Assembly: GCA_963801165.1 (NCBI GenBank) | Contig: CAWDDT010000006.1 | Location: 160,001-224,000, forward strand | DNA length: 64,000 bases | Direction of reading: 5' to 3' | Origin: an uncultured bacterium | Lineage (GTDB): Bacteria > Actinomycetota > Acidimicrobiia > Spongiisociales > UBA5794 | Part shown: positions 9,369 through 21,010 of the stretch, piece after piece | How positions within the stretch are numbered: the stretch's first letter is position 1 | How the letters are laid out: every line of letters starts with the position of its first letter | Made by a program: the position numbers and the translations under genes | The notes under the pieces: generated by a model | Database searches by the model: none | Told to the model about the DNA's origin: nothing | What the model saw: only the letters and a program-made list of their open reading frames with translations

Positions 9369-9396
9369 TTGACTGCGCCGGTCGCCCACGTATAAT
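9369..9396 (+). promoter_or_regulatory. Sigma70-type promoter of infC-rpmI-rplT
   Basis: TTGACT (9369-9374), 16-bp spacer, TATAAT (9391-9396). Confidence 0.75.
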
Positions 9397-9454: not shown

Positions 9455-9546
9455 GCAAGCGGAGGCGCCTGCTTCCCACCCGGCCACGATTTGACGTGAG
9501 CCTGAGGTAGACCCGAGGCAGCACCGTTTGTGCTGCCTTTGTTTGT
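9455..9546 (+). promoter_or_regulatory. L20-leader-like attenuator with intrinsic terminator
   Basis: AAGCGGAGGCGCCTGCTTCCCACC resembles the Firmicutes L20 leader; hairpin GAGGCAGCAC-cgttt-GTGCTGCCTT plus T-rich tail at 9515-9545; CTGCTTC can alternatively pair with GAGGCAG. Confidence 0.6.
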
Positions 9547-10970: not shown

Positions 10971-11720
10971 ATGATCACATCGGTGCGCAATAGCCGTGTC
11001 GCTGAAGCGCGCAAGCTCAATCGGCGGCGTGAGAGAAGGGCCACCGGGAAGACAACAATCGATGGCCCCTTGCTATTGCGGGAGGCCATCGCGGCCGACA
11101 TTGCGATCAGCGAGGTGTTCGCACTGGCCGACGACGAGGAAACGGTCGGTTTGGCGGAATCGGCGGGCGTCGAATTGCTCGCGGTCACACCGGATGTCTT
11201 GCGGTCTCTGGCATCGAGTGTCAACCCGCGCGGGCCGGTGGCCGTCATCGCGATACCGCCGCCGCGGGCCATTACGGCAACCGACGCCGTGTTGTTGTGG
11301 GAGGTCCGGGACCCGGGGAACGCCGGCACGATCATCCGGTCCGCAGCCTCGTTCGGATTCCAGGTCCTCGCCAGCCGAGACACCGTCGATTTGTGGTCGC
11401 CGAAGGTGGTCCGGGCGGGCGTCGGTGGTCATTTTCGCACGCCTTTGATCGAGGACGTCACGGGCATCGAGGAACTCGACAGAGTCGGTCTGGTACCGCT
11501 GGCCATGACCACCCGCGGCGTTGCCATTGGAAAGGTCGACATTTCCGACCCGACGCCCGTTGCCTTTGTTCTCGGAAACGAGGCTCATGGATTGCCCGCC
11601 GAGATCAGTGATCGTGTGACCAACGTCACGTTGCCGATGCCAGGTGGTACCGAGAGCCTGAACGCTGGAGTGGCCGCAAGCATTGCCATGTACTTGCGCA
11701 TGTCGCGCCGGCCCCAGTAG
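10971..11720 (+). CDS. TrmH/SpoU family RNA 2'-O-methyltransferase
   Basis: DPGNAGTIIRSA, GNEAHGL, ESLNAGVAAS; usual position between rplT and pheS. Confidence 0.9.
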   Translation: MITSVRNSRVAEARKLNRRRERRATGKTTIDGPLLLREAIAADIAISEVFALADDEETVGLAESAGVELLAVTPDVLRSLASSVNPRGPVAVIAIPPPRAITATDAVLLWEVRDPGNAGTIIRSAASFGFQVLASRDTVDLWSPKVVRAGVGGHFRTPLIEDVTGIEELDRVGLVPLAMTTRGVAIGKVDISDPTPVAFVLGNEAHGLPAEISDRVTNVTLPMPGGTESLNAGVAASIAMYLRMSRRPQ

Positions 11721-11846
11721 CGGGTGAGACTAGGCCCCAGCAGCAGCGGGGTAACAAGGCCCCAGCAGCGAGTAGCAAATAGGGGCCCGAGCCTCTGGCT
11801 GCGGATGCAGACGAACGCTATCGCCGTTCCCGGGTTTCGCTCATCC

Positions 11847-11875
11847 TTGCATTGTTCCCGGCCAGCCGATACCGT
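11847..11875 (+). promoter_or_regulatory. Candidate promoter for the pheST leader
   Basis: TTGCAT (11847-11852), 17-bp spacer, TACCGT (11870-11875). Confidence 0.5.
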
Positions 11876-11883
11876 TGGCGTTG

Positions 11884-11952
11884 GTGACATCCATCGCACG
11901 ACGTCGTTTCGCCTTTACCGGGCCCGGGGCCCGGGCAAGAGGCGCGTCGTGA
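11884..11952 (+). CDS. Putative pheST leader peptide MTSIARRRFAFTGPGARARGAS (22 aa)
   Basis: GTG...TGA small ORF with Phe codons TTC (11908) and TTT (11914), overlapping the antiterminator strand. Confidence 0.6.
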   Translation: MTSIARRRFAFTGPGARARGAS

Positions 11953-11978
11953 CCTGACCATCAGTATCGACCTGCATT

Positions 11979-12008
11979 GCCCGGGCCAGCCCCCGGGCTT
12001 TTCTTTTG
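11979..12008 (+). terminator. Intrinsic terminator (attenuator) upstream of pheS
   Basis: GCCCGGG-ccagcc-CCCGGGC followed by TTTTCTTTTG. Confidence 0.75.
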
Positions 12009-12039
12009 TCCGAGCAGCAACGAAGCAGGACCCACACCC

Positions 12040-13116
12040 ATGACGAGTAATCTGACCGACCCTATGGACTTGAAGAGATCACTGGAAGAGCTCGAGCACA
12101 CAACTTTGAGCGCACTGGCCGCGGCCGGGACGATGGACGCCCTAGCCGGGGTCGAGGCCGCCGCCGTCGGCCGGGAGTCGCCGATCGCCGCTGCTCGGCG
12201 CAATCTGGGGAAGATGCAACCAGAGGAGCGCCGCGATGCGGGTCGCCTCATCAACGAGGTCGCCAAGAAGCTCGAAGCTGCGATCGAAGAACGACGCGAT
12301 GCGCTCGTTGCCGAGGAGCGCCGCAAAGCCATCGCCGCCGAGGCGATCGACGTCACCATCGACTACATGTCGCTTCCCAAGGGACGGCTCCACGTTGTCC
12401 AACAAGTGATCGACGAGGTCTGCGACATCTTCGTCGGTCTTGGCTATCACATCGCGGAAGGCCCTGAGGCCGAGCTCGCCTGGTACAACTTCGACGCCCT
12501 GAACACGCCACCGGATCATCCGGGAAGGTTGGAATCGGACACTATGTATCTCGACTACGGCGAGCCCGAGGATGAGATGCTGATGCGTGCCCACACGTCG
12601 CCGATCCAGGCACGACACATGGAGCGCCACCAGCCGCCGGTGTACATCGTTGCCCCGGGGCGCGCCTACCGCAATGACACCATCGATGCTTCGCATCTAC
12701 CGGTGTTCCATCAGATCGAAGGGCTCGCGGTGGACGAGTCCATCACGTTCTCCGATCTCAAAGGCACGCTCGCTGAGTTCGCCCGACAGTTCTTCGGCCC
12801 GACGACGCTGGTACGGATGCGGCCCCACTACTTCCCCTTCACGGAGCCTTCGGCAGAGCTGGACGTGTCGTGCTTCAACTGTGACGGCGGGGAGGCTTCG
12901 TGCCGAGTGTGCAAAGGCGTCGGCTGGCTCGAGATGCTCGGTTGCGGGATGGTTGATCCCAACGTGTTCACGGCGGTCGGCTACGACCCCGACAAGGTGA
13001 GCGGTTTTGCGTTCGGTATTGGAGTCGAGCGGCTGGCCATGGTCCGGCACGACATCGATTCCATCAGACACTTCGTGGACAACGACGTCCGCTTCCTCAA
13101 CCAATTCCCCGGATAG
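12040..13116 (+). CDS. pheS: Phenylalanyl-tRNA synthetase alpha subunit
   Basis: NFDALN, RAHTSPIQ, HLPVFHQIEG, YFPFTEPSAE, GFAFGIGVERL; start ATG 12040 or 12064. Confidence 0.97.
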   Translation: MTSNLTDPMDLKRSLEELEHTTLSALAAAGTMDALAGVEAAAVGRESPIAAARRNLGKMQPEERRDAGRLINEVAKKLEAAIEERRDALVAEERRKAIAAEAIDVTIDYMSLPKGRLHVVQQVIDEVCDIFVGLGYHIAEGPEAELAWYNFDALNTPPDHPGRLESDTMYLDYGEPEDEMLMRAHTSPIQARHMERHQPPVYIVAPGRAYRNDTIDASHLPVFHQIEGLAVDESITFSDLKGTLAEFARQFFGPTTLVRMRPHYFPFTEPSAELDVSCFNCDGGEASCRVCKGVGWLEMLGCGMVDPNVFTAVGYDPDKVSGFAFGIGVERLAMVRHDIDSIRHFVDNDVRFLNQFPG

Positions 13117-13119
13117 AAA

Positions 13120-15510
13120 ATGCGAGTATCACTGAACTGGCTAAAAGAATACGTAGACCTCCCCACCGAGGATCCGGAACGGCTGGCGCGGGCGTTCGAC
13201 ATGCTCGGGCACGCCGTGGAGTCGATCGAGGAATACACCGTTGGGTGGACGGACGTACTCATCGGCAAGGTGCTGAGAATCGAGAGCCACCCCAACGCCG
13301 ACACGGTTCGCGTCACCCACGTAGATCTCGGTGATGGCCAGGAGCACCAGATAATCTGTGGCGCCTGGAACTTCGAGGCGGGCGCCGTGGTGCCCGTGGC
13401 CGTGCCGGGAGCGGTGCTCCCGGGCGATTTTGCAATCGGGACGAGGACCATCCGCGGAGTGGAGTCACACGGGATGATCTGCTCGGAGCGCGAGCTCGGG
13501 TTGGGAGATCTCCACGAGGGAATCATGGTCCTCGATCCGGGCGCCCCGATCGGCGAGCCCTTCGCATCGATCCTCGAGTTGCCCGACGTCGTGTTCGACC
13601 TGGAGATCACAAACAACCGCCCGGACGTGATGGGGATGGTCGGCGTCGCCCGTGAGCTGGCGGCATGGTTCAGCACTGACTACCGGTATCCCGACGTGGA
13701 CCTGGATACCGTCCCCGGTGAACCGCGGCTCGATATCGCCATCACGGCCACCGACGGCTGCAACAGGTTCGTCGCCAGGGAGATGCGCGACGTCGCGCTC
13801 GCACCCTCACCCCTGTGGATGAGGGAACGGCTGCGCAAGGCCGGGGTCCGGGCCATCTCCAACATCGTCGACGTTTCCAACTACGTGATGTTGGAGCTGG
13901 GTCACCCGCTCCACACGTTCGACGCCGACTCCATTGTTGGTGATCGTCTCGAAGTCCGCTGGGCGCACCCGGGTGAGACCCTCGAGACCCTGGACGGCGT
14001 TGCCCGCAGCCTGGACGGTCGGGACCTCGTCATTGTCGATGATGACGGCCCGACGTCGCTGGCCGCGGTGATGGGCGGGGCCCGGTCGGAAGTCGTTGCG
14101 ACGACCGATCGGGTCATCATGGAAGCGGCTTCGTGGGACCCCGCGACCGTCATGTACACGTCGCGGCGTCACGACCTGCGCTCCGAGGCTTCGGCCCGCT
14201 TCGAGCGTGGCGTCGATCCCAACCTGGCGCCGGATGCCAACGCCAGGGCGTGCCGGGTACTCCGGGAGATCTCGGGAGGCTCGATCCTCGAAACCGTCAT
14301 CGACGTCAACCCGAACCCGCGGGATCCGTGGACTGTGCAGGTCGCCAAACGGAACGTGACCCGTATCCTCGGCGACGAGTTCGACCTCGAAAGGTCGGCA
14401 TCGCTGCTGCGCCGCCTGGGTCTCGAAGTCACGGAGGGGGAGACGTTGCTCGTGCGGATCCCCACCTACCGGCGCGACCTCACCAGGCCCGCTGATCTCG
14501 TTGAGGAGATAGCCCGGCTGGCGGACTACGACACGTTCCCGGCGACTCTGCCCAAAGGGCCCGCGGGGGGCCTCCTTCCGAACCAGCAGAGAACACGGCT
14601 CGCCCACAACATCCTCCGTGGCGTCGGCCTCGTTCAGGCCATCAACCTCCCGTTTGTGTCGGAAGTCGAGCTCGCCGTCTTCAGCGACGAGGCGTCCGGC
14701 GATGCGGTGCCGGACGTGGTCAGCGTGCGCAACCCGCTCCGGGACGATCAGTCACGGCTGCGCCAGAGTCTGCTCCCAGGGCTATTGCGCAACCTCCGGG
14801 AGAACCGGAATCGCGGCCTCGATGGCGTCGCGCTGTTCGAGACCGGCCGTGTGTTCTATGCCCGACCCTGGGAAGACGATGCGAGGGTCCCGGAGCAACC
14901 CGTGCGTCTGGCAGCCGCGCTGAGCGGGCCCCTGGGGCGGACGAGCCTGGGGCAGCGGGGAGAGCTCACAGATGCGGCAACGGCTCTGGCCGTGGTCGAT
15001 TTGCTCGGCGATGGACTCGGGGTCGAGATCACGCGCCGGCAGGCGCGACGGGCGGGCTTCCATCCCACCCGTACGGCCGAGCTCTCGATGGACGGTCGCA
15101 CGATCGGCTATGCGGGCGAGTTGCACCCGGATGTCGCCGAGCAGTTCGAGCTGAACGGGCGCGTCGCAGTTCTGGAGCTAGATCTGGCTCCCGTGGTTGC
15201 GCCCCGCCCCAGCATGCAGATGCAGCCCGTGTCGACCTATCCCCATGTCGAGTTCGACCTGTCTTTCGAGGTTGCCCTCGACGCGCCCGCGGCCAGCCTG
15301 GTCGCGGCGACGACGGAGACCTCCGACCTTGTCGAAACCGCAGCGATCTTTGACGACTACCGCAACGAGCGAGGGGACAGAGCCGTGGCGATCAGCTACC
15401 GCTTGCGAGCCAACGACCGCACTCTCGGCGCCGATGAGATTGCGGAGGTCAGGCAGAAGATGATCGAAGGTGCGGCAGCCCTGGGCGCCAAGCTGCGCGG
15501 CGGGGCGTGA
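13120..15510 (+). CDS. pheT: Phenylalanyl-tRNA synthetase beta subunit
   Basis: MRVSLNWLKEY, IICGAWN, GMICSERELG, ITNNRPD, RFERGVDP, DLVEEIARL. Confidence 0.97.
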   Translation: MRVSLNWLKEYVDLPTEDPERLARAFDMLGHAVESIEEYTVGWTDVLIGKVLRIESHPNADTVRVTHVDLGDGQEHQIICGAWNFEAGAVVPVAVPGAVLPGDFAIGTRTIRGVESHGMICSERELGLGDLHEGIMVLDPGAPIGEPFASILELPDVVFDLEITNNRPDVMGMVGVARELAAWFSTDYRYPDVDLDTVPGEPRLDIAITATDGCNRFVAREMRDVALAPSPLWMRERLRKAGVRAISNIVDVSNYVMLELGHPLHTFDADSIVGDRLEVRWAHPGETLETLDGVARSLDGRDLVIVDDDGPTSLAAVMGGARSEVVATTDRVIMEAASWDPATVMYTSRRHDLRSEASARFERGVDPNLAPDANARACRVLREISGGSILETVIDVNPNPRDPWTVQVAKRNVTRILGDEFDLERSASLLRRLGLEVTEGETLLVRIPTYRRDLTRPADLVEEIARLADYDTFPATLPKGPAGGLLPNQQRTRLAHNILRGVGLVQAINLPFVSEVELAVFSDEASGDAVPDVVSVRNPLRDDQSRLRQSLLPGLLRNLRENRNRGLDGVALFETGRVFYARPWEDDARVPEQPVRLAAALSGPLGRTSLGQRGELTDAATALAVVDLLGDGLGVEITRRQARRAGFHPTRTAELSMDGRTIGYAGELHPDVAEQFELNGRVAVLELDLAPVVAPRPSMQMQPVSTYPHVEFDLSFEVALDAPAASLVAATTETSDLVETAAIFDDYRNERGDRAVAISYRLRANDRTLGADEIAEVRQKMIEGAAALGAKLRGGA

Positions 15511-15524
15511 GAACTGGAGCAGGA

Positions 15525-16433
15525 ATGGCAGATTTCTTGATGGTTACCGATATCGGTGGGGAGGGCCTCACCGAGACGTTGCGGCTGGCGGCTGAATCAA
15601 AGAAGAACCTGAGCGAGTATGCCGGGAGGCTGTCCGGCCGGAAGGTCGGGTTGTTCTTCGAGAAACCGTCTACGAGGACACGGGTCTCGTGCGAGGTGGC
15701 CACGGTCGAGCTGGGGGCACACCCGGTGGTCCTCAAGGCGGACGAGGTCGGCCTCGGAAAGCGGGAGGCAGTCGAGGATGTCGCCCGGACATTGGATCGG
15801 TATCTCGACGTCCTCGCCTTTCGTGTGTTCGACCACGGCAACCTGGTCAAGATGGCGCCGCTCACGACGGCACCGATCGTGAACCTCCTGTCGGATCGCT
15901 CGCACCCATGCCAGGCGCTCGCAGATCTACAGACAATCGCCGAGCACCGCGCACTGGCGGGAGCCAAAGTGGCGTACATCGGGGACGGCAACAACGTCTG
16001 CCACAGTCTCATGCTGGCCGGGGCCATGACCGGGGTCGATGTCCGTGTAGCGGGCCCTGCCGGTTATCAGCCCGCAGCGGACGTCGTGTCGCAGGCGTCT
16101 GAGATAGCCGCTGGGACCGGCGGCAGAATCACGGTGACGACCGATGCGACGGCCGCTATCGCCGGGGCGGACGTCGTGTACACCGACGTATGGACATCCA
16201 TGGGTCAGGAGGCGGAAGCTGCGGAACGTCACGAGATGCTGATGCCGTTCCAGGTGACGCGCGAGCTGTTCGAGAGTGCGGCGGACGACGCCATCTTCAT
16301 GCATTGCCTGCCGGCGCACCGCGGCGAGGAGGCGACAGACGACGTGCTCGAGCACAAGCGGTCACGGATCTTCGACCAGGCCGAGAACCGAATGCATTCG
16401 TTCCGCGGGCTATTGCTCTATCTACAGGCTTGA
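15525..16433 (+). CDS. argF: Ornithine carbamoyltransferase
   Basis: FEKPSTRT, HPCQALAD, DVWTSMG, HCLPAHRGEE, DQAENR. Confidence 0.92.
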   Translation: MADFLMVTDIGGEGLTETLRLAAESKKNLSEYAGRLSGRKVGLFFEKPSTRTRVSCEVATVELGAHPVVLKADEVGLGKREAVEDVARTLDRYLDVLAFRVFDHGNLVKMAPLTTAPIVNLLSDRSHPCQALADLQTIAEHRALAGAKVAYIGDGNNVCHSLMLAGAMTGVDVRVAGPAGYQPAADVVSQASEIAAGTGGRITVTTDATAAIAGADVVYTDVWTSMGQEAEAAERHEMLMPFQVTRELFESAADDAIFMHCLPAHRGEEATDDVLEHKRSRIFDQAENRMHSFRGLLLYLQA

Positions 16434-16984
16434 GGAACACCCCGCTCGAGAGGTTGCTCGCAGGCGACGTCTTCGCGGTTGCCGAAGGTCTGATCGGGTG
16501 GACGCTGCGCTCGAACGTAGATGGCGCCACGACGGCGGTGACCATCACCGAGACCGAGGCATATGCGGGCAGCGACGATCCGGCGAGCCACGCCTATCGA
16601 GGGAGAACGAGACGCAACGCCTCCATGTTCGGGCGAGCGGGGCTCCTCTACGTCTACCGGTCGTACGGCATCCACTGGTGCATGAACGTTGTGGTTGGCG
16701 AGGCCGGGCTCGGCCATGCAGTGCTGCTGCGCGGTGGTGAGATCACCGAGGGCGTCGCTGTTGCCGTCGCCCGACGCGGGCGTCACGACCATCTCACGGA
16801 TGGGCCGGGCAAGCTCTGTCAGGCGCTCGGGGTGACCGGCAGTCACGATGGCAGCGATCTACGATCGGGGCCGCTCCTCCTCGAGCCCGGACCGGGAGTC
16901 GGGGGTCGACGCATCGAGACGACACCACGTATCGGGATATCGAAGGCCAGGGAACACCGCTGGCGCTTCGTCCTTGTGGGCTAA
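16430..16984 (+). CDS. mpg: 3-methyladenine DNA glycosylase (MPG/Aag family)
   Basis: ETEAY, YVYRSYGIHWCMN, GPGKLCQAL, PRIGIS; TTG start overlaps the argF stop. Confidence 0.9.
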   Translation: MRNTPLERLLAGDVFAVAEGLIGWTLRSNVDGATTAVTITETEAYAGSDDPASHAYRGRTRRNASMFGRAGLLYVYRSYGIHWCMNVVVGEAGLGHAVLLRGGEITEGVAVAVARRGRHDHLTDGPGKLCQALGVTGSHDGSDLRSGPLLLEPGPGVGGRRIETTPRIGISKAREHRWRFVLVG

Positions 16985-16996
16985 CCTCCCCAGACG

Positions 16997-18190
16997 ATGA
17001 CCCCTGAAGAACAACTGGCATACCTGACCGCCGGCGTCGATACCGTCCTTCCCGAAGGCGAGCTGCTGCAGAGACTGCAGCTGGGTCGCCCGCTCCGGGC
17101 CAAGCTCGGAGTGGACCCCACGGCACCAGACGTAACGCTGGGGTGGGCGGTTGTTTTCGAGCGTCTCCGTCGGTTCCAGGAGTGTGGCCACACCGCAGTC
17201 CTGATCATCGGCGATTTCACCGCACAGGTGGGCGATCCGAGCGGCAAGAGCGAGACGCGACGCCGTCTCGGAGCCGGCGAGGTCGGGGGGTACGTGTCGG
17301 GGGTGATCGAAACGATCAGGGAGCTACTGCTTCCCGACAACCTCGAGATCCGACACAATTCGGAATGGCTGGGCGAGATGGACATGCACGACGTCCTCGA
17401 CCTCACGTCGCAGTTCACGGTGTCCCGCATCATGGACCGTGATGACTTCTCAAAGCGCTGGGATGCCCACGACGCGATCTCGATGATCGAATTCATGTAC
17501 CCGCTGCTGCAAGGCATGGACTCCGTCGCCGTTCACGCTGACATCGAGCTAGGAGGTAGCGACCAGCTCTTCAACAACCTGGTGGGACGAGACCTGCAGG
17601 AGCGGAAGGGCCAGGTCGGGCAGATGGTGATGACCGTGCCATTGCTAGTCGGGACCGACGGGGTGAAGAAGATGTCACAGTCGCTCGGCAACTACATCTC
17701 GGTCAAGGACGAGCCTGCAGAGATGTTCGGCAAGACGATGAGCATCCCTGATGAGGCGATGGGGCAGTGGTTCGAATTGGCTGCATACCGTCCGGCCGCC
17801 GAAGTCGTGGAGATCATGGAGGAGTTACGCACCGGTCGCCGCCACCCGGGAGAGACGAAGCGCGAGCTGGCCCGGTCGATCGTCGGCCGCTACTGGGGCA
17901 AGGAGGCAGCCGATGAGGCGGAGGGCGCATTCGACCTGCTCTTCAAACAGCACAGTGTGCCGGCCCAAGTGCCCGAGCATCCGGTCGGCAACGACGATCC
18001 GGTATGGCTTCCGGGGCTGCTCAACGCTGCCGGGCTGGTGTCCTCAAACGGAGAGGGACGGCGCATGCTCAAACAACTCGCCGTCCGAATCGACGGCAAC
18101 CCGGTCGCCGAGGAGAGCGTGGCGCGAGCGACGCTGGTCGGGGCGGTTCTTCAGGTGGGGAAGCGCCGGTTCGTGAGGTTGGTCGGATGA
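16997..18190 (+). CDS. tyrS: Tyrosyl-tRNA synthetase
   Basis: GVDPTAP, GDFTAQVGDPSG, YPLLQGMD, GGSDQ, KMSQS, C-terminal S4 domain QVGKRRF. Confidence 0.95.
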   Translation: MTPEEQLAYLTAGVDTVLPEGELLQRLQLGRPLRAKLGVDPTAPDVTLGWAVVFERLRRFQECGHTAVLIIGDFTAQVGDPSGKSETRRRLGAGEVGGYVSGVIETIRELLLPDNLEIRHNSEWLGEMDMHDVLDLTSQFTVSRIMDRDDFSKRWDAHDAISMIEFMYPLLQGMDSVAVHADIELGGSDQLFNNLVGRDLQERKGQVGQMVMTVPLLVGTDGVKKMSQSLGNYISVKDEPAEMFGKTMSIPDEAMGQWFELAAYRPAAEVVEIMEELRTGRRHPGETKRELARSIVGRYWGKEAADEAEGAFDLLFKQHSVPAQVPEHPVGNDDPVWLPGLLNAAGLVSSNGEGRRMLKQLAVRIDGNPVAEESVARATLVGAVLQVGKRRFVRLVG

Positions 18191-18417: not shown

Positions 18418-20715
18418 TCAGGCTACGTCGCCGAATCCAAAACGCTTCCGGCCGCGTTCGACTCCCAGGCAAAGACCTCCGAGCCCGAGGAACATCATGC
18501 CGATCATGGCGATGCTACCGAGGTTCATACCCGTCACCGGCATGATCGCGATGATGCCGAAGTCGGCGTCGAGGAAGCTCTCGTCATCGAGGACGGTGAC
18601 CGTGTAGGTCCCGACGGTTGTCAGACCGTAGTTGTCTGGCAGCGTGGACTTGAGCACCTCGACGACGTACGTGCCGGCATCGAGACCCGAGAACAAGTAG
18701 CGTCCGTTGGCGTTGGTGACCTGGGTGAGCACCTCATTGGTCGCCTGGTTGGTCAGCCTGACGGTGACCCCGGCAACCGGATCCTCAGTGGAGTCCTGGA
18801 CCTTGTCCCCGTTGACGTCGTACCAGACGTAGTCGCCAATTGTCGAGGACGCTTGCACGATTGCGATCGAGGTGACGACAGCGTCGTCCCAGTCGTCGCC
18901 CTGCCCGTCACCGGGCACCGAGTCGGAGTCCTGCTCGTTCGCGGCGGTCACCTCGGCGACATTGGTGAAGACGCCGATGTCGTCAACGGTGACAACGAAA
19001 TCCATCGAAACGGAGTCCCCGACGGCGAGATTGCCGATGGTCCATACGCCGGTTGCAGAGTTGTAGGCGCCGCCCCCGTTGTCGGAGACATAGGTGAGAC
19101 CGGCAGGAAGGGTATCGGTCACCTCGACCCCGGTGGCATCATCCGGACCCTGGTTGACAACGCTGATCGTGAACGTCGTCTCGTCACCAACCTGCACCGC
19201 AGCCGGAGCGACATCCTTAGTCAACTCCAGATCAATGATCGCAGGGGGCTCCTCGGTTGCGACAACAACGGCGTCATCCCAGTCGTCGCCCTGCCCGTCA
19301 CCGGGCACCGAGTCAGAGTCCTGCTCGTTCGCCGCGGTCACCTCAGCAACATTGGTGAAGCTGCCAACCTGGTCAACCGTCACCACAAAGCCGAGCTGCA
19401 CCGAAGCACCAACGGCAAGATCACCAATGGTCCACACCCCGGTCGTCGAGTCATAGGCGCCGGCGCCATTATCAGAGACATAGGTGAGACCGGCAGGAAG
19501 CGTATCGGTCACCTCGACCCCGGTGGCATCATCCGGACCCTGGTTGACAACGCTGATCGTGAACGTCGTCTCGTCACCAACCTGCACCGCAGCCGGAGCG
19601 ACATCCTTAGTCAACTCCAGATCAATGATCGCAGGGGGCTCCTCGGTTGCGACAACAACGGCGTCATCCCAGTCGTCGCCCTGCCCGTCACCGGGCACCG
19701 AGTCAGAGTCCTGCTCGTTCGCCGCGGTCACCTCAGCAACATTGGTGAAGCTGCCAACCTGGTCAACCGTCACCACAAAGCCGAGCTGCACCGAAGCACC
19801 AACGGCAAGATCACCAATGGTCCACACCCCGGTCGTCGAGTCATAGGCGCCGGCGCCATTATCAGAGACATAGGTGAGACCGGCAGGAAGCGTATCGGTC
19901 ACCTCGACCCCGGTGGCATCATCCGGACCCTGGTTGACAACGCTGATCGTGAACGTCGTCTCGTCACCAACCTGCACCGCAGCCGGAGCGACATCCTTAG
20001 TCAACTCCAGATCAATGATCGGGGAGTCGGCGGTGATCCCGATGTTGTCGATCAGCCCTGAGCCGTTCAGGTCTACGACCATTCTGGCCACGCCCGAGAT
20101 TCCCGGCTCGACGACAGTGAAAGCGTTGTCCCCATTGTTCGGGATGGACAGCGTGGTCAGGAGTGCGTCTGCACTGTCGTAGAAGGATACGAACGCGACT
20201 TGGCCGGGATCCACATCGGCCGCGCTGAAGCGGTCAACGGTAACGACCCCGGGCCCCCAGGCGGAGAAGTCGAAGGAGAAGAGCGTGTTCGGGTTGCCGG
20301 CGTCGTCGGGATCGGAGGCATCTCCATCTTCGGTGATGATCAATCCTTGACCGAGCGAGGGCGCAAAGAGATCCGCATCCTGACCAGTGCACAATGTTGG
20401 GTCAAACCCAGGGTCGTTGAACGGCCCCGGCTGCCCGCCACACGTGGCATCGAAGATCATTGCCGAGTTCCCGGAGAGGTCCGGGTTGGTCCCGAACACC
20501 GACACGGTACCCAGGTTGGCTCCGCTCATCCCATGTCCGACCGACAGCGTCGACACGGTGTCGCCGGCGCTGAATCCGGCTTGAAAATCAATTACCGATG
20601 ATTGCTCGACTGCATCCGCCTGCGGGATACCTACGGTTCCCAGCAGAGCGGTGAGGAGCAACGTCAGCAGTATGGCCGCGGTTGCGCGGTTGCCACGTTT
20701 CGTCGCGTACGACAT
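18418..20715 (-). CDS. Secreted/cell-wall-anchored surface protein: signal peptide, 3 DUF11-like Ig repeats, SdrD/Cna-B-like domain, LPxTG-like (MPVTG) sorting signal
   Basis: N-terminal signal peptide; repeats DLELTK...VVNQGPDDATGVEVTDTLPAGL; IGDYVWYDVNGD...DFG; MPVTG followed by TM helix and basic tail. Confidence 0.85.
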   Translation of the reverse strand: MSYATKRGNRATAAILLTLLLTALLGTVGIPQADAVEQSSVIDFQAGFSAGDTVSTLSVGHGMSGANLGTVSVFGTNPDLSGNSAMIFDATCGGQPGPFNDPGFDPTLCTGQDADLFAPSLGQGLIITEDGDASDPDDAGNPNTLFSFDFSAWGPGVVTVDRFSAADVDPGQVAFVSFYDSADALLTTLSIPNNGDNAFTVVEPGISGVARMVVDLNGSGLIDNIGITADSPIIDLELTKDVAPAAVQVGDETTFTISVVNQGPDDATGVEVTDTLPAGLTYVSDNGAGAYDSTTGVWTIGDLAVGASVQLGFVVTVDQVGSFTNVAEVTAANEQDSDSVPGDGQGDDWDDAVVVATEEPPAIIDLELTKDVAPAAVQVGDETTFTISVVNQGPDDATGVEVTDTLPAGLTYVSDNGAGAYDSTTGVWTIGDLAVGASVQLGFVVTVDQVGSFTNVAEVTAANEQDSDSVPGDGQGDDWDDAVVVATEEPPAIIDLELTKDVAPAAVQVGDETTFTISVVNQGPDDATGVEVTDTLPAGLTYVSDNGGGAYNSATGVWTIGNLAVGDSVSMDFVVTVDDIGVFTNVAEVTAANEQDSDSVPGDGQGDDWDDAVVTSIAIVQASSTIGDYVWYDVNGDKVQDSTEDPVAGVTVRLTNQATNEVLTQVTNANGRYLFSGLDAGTYVVEVLKSTLPDNYGLTTVGTYTVTVLDDESFLDADFGIIAIMPVTGMNLGSIAMIGMMFLGLGGLCLGVERGRKRFGFGDVA
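18851..20020. repeat. Three tandem 390-bp units; 19112-20020 is perfectly periodic
   Basis: ATCAATGATC recurs at 19231, 19621 and 20011; 19241-19630 reads identical to 19631-20020. Confidence 0.95.
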
Positions 20716-21010
20716 CTCCAGCACGCCTTCCCTTGTTCGCCCAATACGCTGTCTTTCGGGGCCCACCCGTATTGACAGCCATTCCTATCCCCCCCCACTT
20801 AAAGTGGTGGAATCACTGCTTAGCGTATCGGAGATTTCTCCGCCCGATTGCTCTAGCTAGACCAGTGTACAGAATTGCGAGGATGGTTTGACTGATAGTG
20901 GACCAAAGAAGGGGTGGCGACGGCCCAGGACATGATTTGCATTCGTCCCGCAGTTGTGATTGGATACCGCCCGCACAGGTCGCCGACCCATGGCGGGACG
21001 GCGACCGATT

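Follow-up and report, generated by a model that had tools for sequence, protein, structure and literature searches.

We analyzed a stretch of 64,000 nucleotides (nt), referred to in its whole length as the window, from an uncultured actinobacterium of the class Acidimicrobiia (contig CAWDDT010000006.1 of assembly GCA_963801165.1; G+C content 62.9%; positions are counted from the first letter of the window). Its forward strand displays the gene order ribH, infC, rplT, a gene for a SpoU/TrmH-type methyltransferase (ending at 11720), pheS, pheT, argF, a 3-methyladenine glycosylase gene and tyrS. Lodged between the methyltransferase gene and pheS is a compact element combining promoter-like hexamers, a short open reading frame (ORF) with phenylalanine codons, a set of mutually competing RNA helices and a terminator-like hairpin, which we also found upstream of pheS in 25 related genomes. 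We propose that this element is a ribosome-mediated (leader-peptide) transcription attenuator, built on a leaderless leader ORF, which controls pheST; judging from the sequence comparisons set out below, we regard this as the likely, if not yet secure, interpretation. Deployed in this manner, it would probably raise pheST expression when charged phenylalanine tRNA is in short supply. Its parts are the following, with the counts referring to the 26 element-bearing sequences:

11847–11852, forward strand: −35-like hexamer TTGCAT, with a 17-nt spacer to the −10 box
11870–11875, forward strand: −10 box TACCGT (actinobacterial TANNNT type), 8 nt before the GTG at 11884
11884–11952, forward strand: leader ORF MTSIARRRFAFTGPGARARGAS, with a GTG start, 22 sense codons and a TGA stop at 11950–11952
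11897–11903, forward strand: 5′ strand of the outer helix P1 (CACGACG), inside the ORF
11908–11910, forward strand: first aromatic codon, TTC (Phe); Phe in 18/26 and Tyr (TAC/TAT) in 8/26, the first T being invariant
11914–11916, forward strand: invariant Phe codon TTT, the proposed control codon; TTT in 26/26
11918–11924, forward strand: 5′ arm of the ORF-internal hairpin P2 (CCGGGCC; segment 1), beginning 2 nt after the TTT
11928–11938, forward strand: segment 2, GGCCCGGGCAA, comprising the P2 3′ arm GGCCCGG (11928–11934) and the antiterminator 5′ strand (11928–11938)
11945–11951, forward strand: 3′ strand of P1 (CGTCGTG), overlapping the leader stop codon
11977–11987, forward strand: segment 3, TTGCCCGGGCC, the antiterminator 3′ strand, overlapping the terminator 5′ arm
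11979–11998, forward strand: terminator stem-loop with 7 GC pairs (arms 11979–11985 and 11992–11998) and a 6-nt loop, −15.5 kcal/mol
11999–12007, forward strand: U-tract TTTTCTTTT, 32 nt before pheS

Much of this architecture had been put forward in a preliminary description of the window, and the promoter (TTGCAT-N17-TACCGT), the GTG 8 nt further on, the 22-codon ORF and the codons TTC at 11908 and TTT at 11914 are all situated where it had placed them. Its claim of perfect complementarity between 11928–11938 and 11977–11987 holds as well (GGCCCGGGCAA/TTGCCCGGGCC: 11 nt, 100% complementary), as do the pairing of CACGACG with CGTCGTG and the U-tailed terminator, for which both arms and the U-tract were recovered. 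The role of protector, which it had assigned to the CACGACG/CGTCGTG helix, is only partly sustained: that helix is present, but the main anti-antiterminator, and the most direct competitor of the antiterminator, is P2 (11918–11934), a 7-base-pair (bp) hairpin of −15.2 kcal/mol that had gone unnoticed. The antiterminator itself is an uninterrupted helix with no bulge, and the terminator hairpin with its U-tract ranks first among the 5 terminator-like sites that a 7-kb scan returned, versus 3.9 ± 1.9 such sites in shuffled sequences. The window sequence folds with a z-score of −2.15 (4 of 200 shuffles fold at least as well), and its whole-leader ON and OFF folds, at −50.9 and −50.3 kcal/mol, respectively, are nearly isoenergetic. 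As the single sequence is only moderately unusual, the case beyond chance rests on the comparison with relatives. A pairing of the TTT with an A-rich stretch, which features in the minimum-energy fold of the window, was rejected, as it is not conserved in those relatives.

To assemble the latter, a PheS protein scan taking one genome per species provided 361 confirmed relatives, of which the best 80 were compared with the window (81 sequences). Nearly all of these 80 are titled as Acidimicrobiia or Actinomycetota metagenome-assembled genomes, with a PheS identity of 57–84%. Using a search pattern that requires a TANNNT box and an in-frame start in addition to the aromatic motif, we found the element to be present in 26 of the 81 sequences, namely the window and 25 loci. 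In a FastTree phylogeny of PheS, these 26 constitute exactly one side of a branch with a local support of 100; hence, a single change of state suffices for their distribution. Within this leader clade, PheS identity to the window goes down to 64%. The leaders can be split into two groups, group 1 with 19 sequences (including the window) and group 2 with 7, and a covariance model built from the 19 group-1 sequences recovers all 7 left-out group-2 loci (E 2e-5 to 0.07). In the remaining 55 loci, the same model yields no full-length hit at E < 1, nor does it detect a second copy in the 64-kb window. Moreover, the element stays with pheS where the upstream neighbor differs (loci L005 and L007).

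The link to phenylalanine is centered on the TTT codon at 11914. Among the Phe codons of 21 long ORFs in the window, it accounts for 54 of 348 (15.5%), and among those of pheS in the 25 loci for 42 of 343 (12.2%), yet the leaders have it in 26 of 26 cases; thus, its invariance points to selection rather than to an effect of codon usage. It lies outside every conserved helix; besides it, the start codon is the sole unpaired sequence to be conserved. The 16 invariant columns in the alignment of the 26 sequences consist of two in the start codon, one in the first aromatic codon, the three of the TTT and ten G/C columns in the stems of P2 and the terminator. The TTT is situated 8, 9, 10 or 11 codons from the start codon, always in frame, and the stop codon follows 12–14 codons after it, with the ORF as a whole having 21 (one sequence), 22 (19 sequences), 23 (three) or 24 (three) sense codons. 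The resulting peptides share the consensus M-x(3-5)-R-R-x-(F/Y)-x-F-(T/I/P), and three of them, scanned with E up to 10, had no Pfam or NCBIfam match. The number of stop codons in the other frames is uninformative; those in the +1 frame are TGA within the start context. From the one invariant rare Phe codon and the nature of the regulated genes, we infer that the signal is the supply of Phe-tRNA(Phe).

The region around the start of this ORF is similarly constrained. In all 26 sequences, a TANNNT box is seen 6–9 nt before the leader start codon, with a gap of 7 nt in 15 of these; it is filled by 11 different hexamers, in which the T, the A and the final T are kept. A TTG at the −35 offset, 17 nt before the −10 box, accompanies it in 19/19 group-1 and 0/7 group-2 sequences. 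The start codon is ATG in 14 and GTG in 12 sequences (L002 is counted as GTG, with an alternative ATG 3 nt downstream), its second and third positions (T and G) being invariant and its first always A or G. None of the 26 has a Shine-Dalgarno (SD) sequence before the leader ORF, the box-to-start gap leaving no space for one. An E. coli-type promoter scan of 7 kb did not list the leader promoter, the consensus being that of E. coli and the box of the actinobacterial TANNNT type: with only 3 of 6 positions matching TATAAT, TACCGT is missed by such a scan. Given this promoter geometry, i.e., the conserved spacing between the −10 box and the start codon, the leader ORF is presumed to be leaderless.

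Downstream of the ORF, a hairpin of 7–11 bp is found 21–28 nt after the leader stop codon in 26/26 sequences, and at least 5 T occur within the 9 nt after the terminator stem in 18/26. One subclade (L015, L017, L018 and L026) displays a longer leader terminator (8–10 bp, with a loop of 9–12 nt) that is followed by 3–4 T in 9 nt; there, termination may be weak or dependent on something besides the U-tract.

The leader clade features two different wirings of the same switch. In group 1, the OFF fold, comprising P1, P2 and the terminator, is 85.8% paired versus at most 49.4% with a shifted register, with 8 pairs changed on both sides, and none of 500 shuffles reaches this level. Taken singly, P1 is 72% paired, 4 of its pairs having changed on both sides, and P2 is 91% paired; an independent RNAalifold prediction also contains P2 and the terminator, whereas P1 is missing from it. 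The competing ON fold of this group, the antiterminator, is 79.3% paired versus at most 52% when shifted, with 7–9 of 10 positions paired in 19/19 sequences, and its flank outside the terminator stem covaries (CAA/TTG in the window; CGAA/TTCG, CGAG/CTCG and CGAT/ATCG in the relatives). In group 2, the antiterminator strand is instead made up of the 5′ arm and the loop of the ORF hairpin, and pairs (90%) with the 5′ flank and arm of the terminator, while a second ON helix joins the 3′ arm of the ORF hairpin to the spacer (81.6%). Together, these two ON helices are 86.6% paired versus at most 41.2%; 5 of their pairs have changed on both sides, and no shuffle among 500 is as high. The OFF stems of the group are 87.4% paired versus at most 42.5% when shifted, with P1 at 82% and 3 of its pairs changed on both sides. 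Hence, the 26 sequences all keep the terminator, the ORF-internal hairpin and the antiterminator pairing, which is one of the two things that the preliminary description had set out to be checked in relatives. The other, conservation of the Phe codons, turned out as it expected for the TTT, present throughout, and not for the first position, at which Tyr replaces Phe in 8/26, leaving one universal Phe codon.

From these sequence elements, their conservation, the covariation of the stems and their geometry, we infer the following course of events. Transcription would start at the GTG at 11884, or 1–2 bases from it, driven by the TANNNT-type promoter, such that the 22-codon ORF would be read from a leaderless mRNA. 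In the OFF state, P1 (11897–11903/11945–11951) and P2 (11918–11924/11928–11934) would hold segment 2, allowing the terminator at 11979–11998 to form with its U-tract and transcription to end 32 nt before pheS. In the ON state, segment 2 (11928–11938) would pair with 11977–11987 and block the terminator, whereupon the RNA polymerase would continue into pheS-pheT and the overlapping argF. The choice would be made by the ribosome: when it is stalled with its A site on the TTT, or on the aromatic codon two before, P1 would be opened and the 5′ arm of P2 covered, leaving segment 2 free and the switch ON; once it has moved past the aromatic codons, P2 would re-form behind it and return the switch to OFF. 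An untranslated RNA, e.g., one arising by read-through from the infC-rplT-methyltransferase genes, would also fold into the OFF state. The classical leader-peptide attenuation suggested in the preliminary description is thereby supported, including its notion that a stall at Phe frees the antiterminator; its further notion that translation to the stop codon masks this strand is less probable than recapture by P2 behind the ribosome.

A model in which a ribosome-sized stretch was masked codon by codon, and the equilibrium probability of the terminator stem computed each time, is broadly in line with this mechanism. In the free RNA, the terminator probability is at least 0.95 in 21/26 sequences. 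With the mask extending to 8 nt past the first A-site base, the mean terminator probability is lowest at the invariant Phe codon (0.43; below 0.5 in 14/26) and is never below 0.5 once the A site is at least 4 codons beyond it. With a mask of 13 nt, the mean at the Phe codon is 0.60 (below 0.5 in 13/26), and values below 0.5 never occur from two codons further on. In L001, L002, L008 and L034, low terminator values occur at the (F)-x-F-T codons and nowhere else. Group 1 shows the overall pattern clearly; in group 2 it is weak, and in most sequences of that group the terminator wins at every ribosome position. A kinetic proxy, namely the pairing of the terminator 5′ arm before the 3′ arm is made, discriminated poorly, giving 0.5–0.86 at all ribosome positions. 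Since the mask model is one of equilibrium and ignores the co-transcriptional order of folding, its support for the attenuator is moderate.

Several observations weigh against a phenylalanine-responsive attenuator. At the level of the peptide, there is no Phe run: each leader has 1–3 Phe, only one Phe codon is universal and the first aromatic position is occupied by Tyr in the 8 sequences mentioned above. The open frame is itself unremarkable in GC-rich DNA, with the +2 frame being stop-free in 21/26 sequences. At the level of the RNA, CCCGGG is palindromic and 11 inverted pairs are possible in the region, such that some alternative pairing is automatic; furthermore, the core of the group-1 antiterminator (CCGGGCG) hardly varies, and its covariation is consequently no better than that of shuffles. 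The U-tracts of 8/26 hairpins are weak (3–4 T within the 9 nt after the stem). Equilibrium modeling leaves the terminator dominant at the Phe codon in 12/26 sequences, most of group 2 among them, and a wide footprint of a ribosome stalled at the TTT would cover part of the group-2 antiterminator strand. A −10-like TAATCT at 12048–12053, 10 nt before an in-frame ATG at 12064, sits 3′ of the terminator, where it could serve as a second promoter and let transcription escape the attenuator. Finally, the case is a comparative one, in which all the relatives are metagenome-assembled genomes.

The genes that would be regulated, together with tyrS further downstream, are arranged as follows:

12027–12030, forward strand: SD-like AGGA ahead of the pheS start
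12040–13116, forward strand: pheS, phenylalanine–tRNA ligase alpha subunit (TIGR00468, 313.5 bits, cut-off 237), the first regulated gene
13120–15510, forward strand: pheT, the beta subunit (TIGR00472, 670.6 bits)
15507–16433, forward strand: argF, its start overlapping the pheT stop (15507–15510)
16997–18190, forward strand: tyrS, a short gap after the glycosylase gene (mpg)

In 24/26 sequences of the leader clade, pheS has an SD-like motif and an in-frame start 3′ of the terminator, as is expected of a gene within a longer transcript. The sister clade without the leader presents a different picture: a TAACCT-like box lies 9–12 nt before the pheS ATG in 48/55 loci, and can also be made out by eye in L060, L062 and L063. 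There being no space for an SD sequence between box and ATG, pheS of the sister clade looks nearly leaderless. This suggests that pheS has two kinds of start codons, SD-led in the leader clade and nearly leaderless in its sister clade. A TAACCT-like box is kept in 18/26 leader sequences inside the PheS N-terminal extension, exactly 10 nt before an in-frame ATG. Further downstream in the window, a TAACCT (within 16982–16999) overlaps the glycosylase stop codon, 9 nt before the tyrS ATG at 16997; this hexamer occurs 4 times on both strands of the window versus about 15 expected from base composition. Hence, the same box-to-ATG arrangement marks both aromatic aminoacyl-tRNA synthetase genes. With respect to argF, its N-terminus is encoded directly 3′ of pheT (E < 1e-3) in 13 of the 20 leader loci that reach past pheT, versus 3 weak matches (E 0.001–0.018) in the 55 non-leader loci, indicating that argF adjacency goes with the leader clade. 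The 3′ flanks of the relatives end about 100 nt past pheT, and tyrS lies outside them.

These data allow the element to be read in other ways. It might be a translation-coupled attenuator or insulator that is not specific to any amino acid, whose hairpin ends transcripts coming from the infC-rpmI-rplT-methyltransferase genes and whose ORF, by being translated, signals how readily ribosomes are available in general or whether translation is under stress; read-through would then follow from any slowing within the first twelve or so codons. The terminated fold of the free RNA in 21/26 sequences and the mere 1–3 Phe codons would sit well with such a device, as would the location of the promoter in most relatives, within a few bases of the methyltransferase stop codon and with no separate terminator between them. 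In the mask model too, a ribosome at about codons 2–12 favors the antiterminator in several sequences (the window, L004, L016 and L057). However, in L001, L002, L008 and L034 the antiterminator window is limited to the (F)-x-F-T codons, and general slow-down leaves unexplained both the invariance of a minority codon, TTT, in 26/26 sequences and the always-aromatic codon two before it. Nor does it account for the element staying with pheS when the upstream gene differs; on balance, we consider it unlikely. A sole role as terminator of the upstream operon was rejected, as the element follows pheS despite a different upstream gene and has its own conserved promoter. A switch made of RNA alone, to whose P1–P2 domain a protein (e.g., PheRS itself) or uncharged tRNA-Phe binds, with the ORF being incidental, appears highly improbable to us. 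The stems do account for a large part of what is conserved in the peptide downstream of the motif (P2 and the antiterminator strand encode TGPxARA), an open frame is statistically unremarkable in such GC-rich DNA, and the UUU followed by A resembles a T-box specifier. On the other hand, the T-box model does not match at E up to 10 and no other Rfam family does so above chance level, the uninterrupted antiterminator has no bulge for a tRNA 3′ end, and nothing in an RNA-only switch explains the invariant TG of a start codon 6–9 nt after the −10 box with an A or G before it, the whole-codon length changes before the TTT or the stop codon kept 12–14 codons after it.

It is also conceivable that the leader is multivalent and senses Arg, Tyr and Phe, matching the pheS-pheT-argF(-mpg-tyrS) unit in the manner of the enterobacterial thr and ilv leaders. 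The start of argF on the pheT stop, the glycosylase gene and tyrS following on the same strand after short gaps, and the presence of argF directly after pheT in 13/20 leader loci versus 3 weak matches in 55 others are what such a leader would call for; however, the tree shows one origin for the leader and one for argF adjacency, which makes their co-occurrence a single event, and the tyrS ATG is preceded, at a distance of 9 nt, by a −10-like box of its own. The peptide likewise speaks in two ways. Arg accounts for 58 of the 176 residues (33%) between Met and the aromatic motif versus 7.4% in the genes of the window, with CGA over-used and CGG avoided among the leader Arg codons, and the first aromatic codon is Tyr in 8/26; yet the Arg codons fall on the GC-rich strand of P1 (CGACG), such that their enrichment may be structural, and Arg also makes up 17% of the residues after the motif. 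We judge this reading to be very unlikely. Scarcely better placed, and still quite unlikely, is a fuller scenario in which a multivalent leader with Arg, Tyr/Phe and Phe codons jointly sets the composite pheS-pheT-argF(-mpg-tyrS) unit, which would have arisen together with the leader when PheS acquired a new N-terminal extension that enclosed an ancestral, nearly leaderless promoter of pheS (the TAACCT box). The leader-peptide attenuator responding to phenylalanine thus remains our preferred interpretation of the element.

The vicinity of the element holds some further points of note. The spacer between the methyltransferase gene and the leader promoter carries, at 11710–11773, three direct copies of a 16-nt unit (GGCCCCAG-type) with spacings of 23 and 25 nt; the first copy overlaps the methyltransferase stop codon, and the set looks like a small local duplication of the 3′ end of that gene. 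Most relatives lack this repeat-bearing spacer, with the leader promoter coming directly after the methyltransferase stop codon. Between ribH and infC, a TTGACT-16-TATAAT (11 of 12 positions; 9369–9396) is the only strong E. coli-type promoter in the 7-kb scan, and a 10-bp terminator-like hairpin is found at 9515–9539, about 120 nt after it and still upstream of infC; together, these might be another leader or attenuator. Convergent with tyrS, an ORF of 782 amino acids on the reverse strand (18418–20766) combines DUF11 repeats with an isopeptide-forming fimbrial-type domain and is probably a surface protein.

If correct, our interpretation extends leader-peptide attenuation of a synthetase operon to the Acidimicrobiia, a mostly uncultured class of Actinomycetota, and adds to the annotation of these genomes a small ORF and a cis-regulatory RNA that are missed by pipelines. 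The comparative case is unusually clean, with 26 genomes, two wirings and one invariant rare codon, which makes the clade a good test bed for the minimum number of control codons and for the timing of attenuation with leaderless ribosome loading. Among known RNA families, a scan of 11000–12600 against Rfam with E up to 10 yielded nothing beyond a luteovirus element and a fly long non-coding RNA region, both matching at chance level; accordingly, membership in the T-box and described leader families, none of which matched at that threshold, was rejected. The pheS T-boxes of Firmicutes govern the same gene with the same terminator/antiterminator output. Unlike them, the element described here, at about 125 nt and with a conserved ORF, is without a Stem I, the conserved T-box sequence and the bulge for the tRNA acceptor end.

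A close parallel by function is the pheM-pheST system of E. coli and other gamma-proteobacteria, which involves the same operon and the same logic: a short ORF with Phe codons, a Rho-independent terminator and a competing antiterminator. The pheM leader has a run of five Phe in 14 residues. In contrast, the present leaders feature one or two Phe codons separated by one residue, show no detectable sequence relationship to pheM and no Rfam or NCBIfam match, and, whereas pheM is SD-led, are presumably leaderless and possess an additional outer helix, which the stop codon of the leader itself closes. The wiring invites comparison with E. coli trpL, in which four segments form mutually exclusive pairings, the control codons stand just before segment 1 and untranslated RNA terminates. 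Here too, there are four segments with the control codons just before segment 1, and the untranslated RNA is proposed to be OFF. The differences are that, in group 1, segment 2 would be recaptured by segment 1 behind the ribosome, the stop codon lying 16 nt beyond segment 2, and that, in group 2, the 5′ arm and loop of the ORF hairpin serve as the antiterminator strand, with a second helix taking the 3′ arm.

The view that a pheST leader attenuator had not been described in this lineage agrees with our literature searches and with the lack of an Rfam, Pfam or NCBIfam family match. In full-text literature, we found neither a pheST leader in Actinobacteria nor an attenuator in Acidimicrobiia, with the proviso that work in subscription journals, e.g., on Corynebacterium attenuation sites, could hold a prior description. 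Passages of PMC1262725 name the pheST operon as a classical attenuator case in gamma-proteobacteria, place classical attenuators before trpS and leuS in Streptomyces, and state that the phenylalanine operons of the Actinobacteria available at that time displayed no conserved RNA structure; passages of PMC4833913 add nothing further on pheS. Close counterparts in design come from Streptomyces lividans, for which parts of PMC8079986 report leaderless leader peptides mapped before leuS, trpS, alaS and thrS (LeuL2, TrpL2, AlaL and ThrL). These Streptomyces leaders have 12–22 codons, with one Trp in TrpL2 and two Thr in ThrL, and are followed by hairpins with or without a U-tract (PMC8079986, same parts). 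Like the element described here, they belong to the same phylum and present a leaderless short ORF before a synthetase gene, with few cognate codons and then hairpins; they differ in amino acid and class (Phe and Acidimicrobiia in our case), those parts of PMC8079986 giving no Phe or pheST example, and their starts are mapped by transcription start site data, whereas the present element is known by comparison (26 genomes and covariation). Thus, with leaderless synthetase leaders already established in Streptomyces, the design proposed here is a familiar one that, as far as the literature searches show, is new for pheST in Acidimicrobiia.

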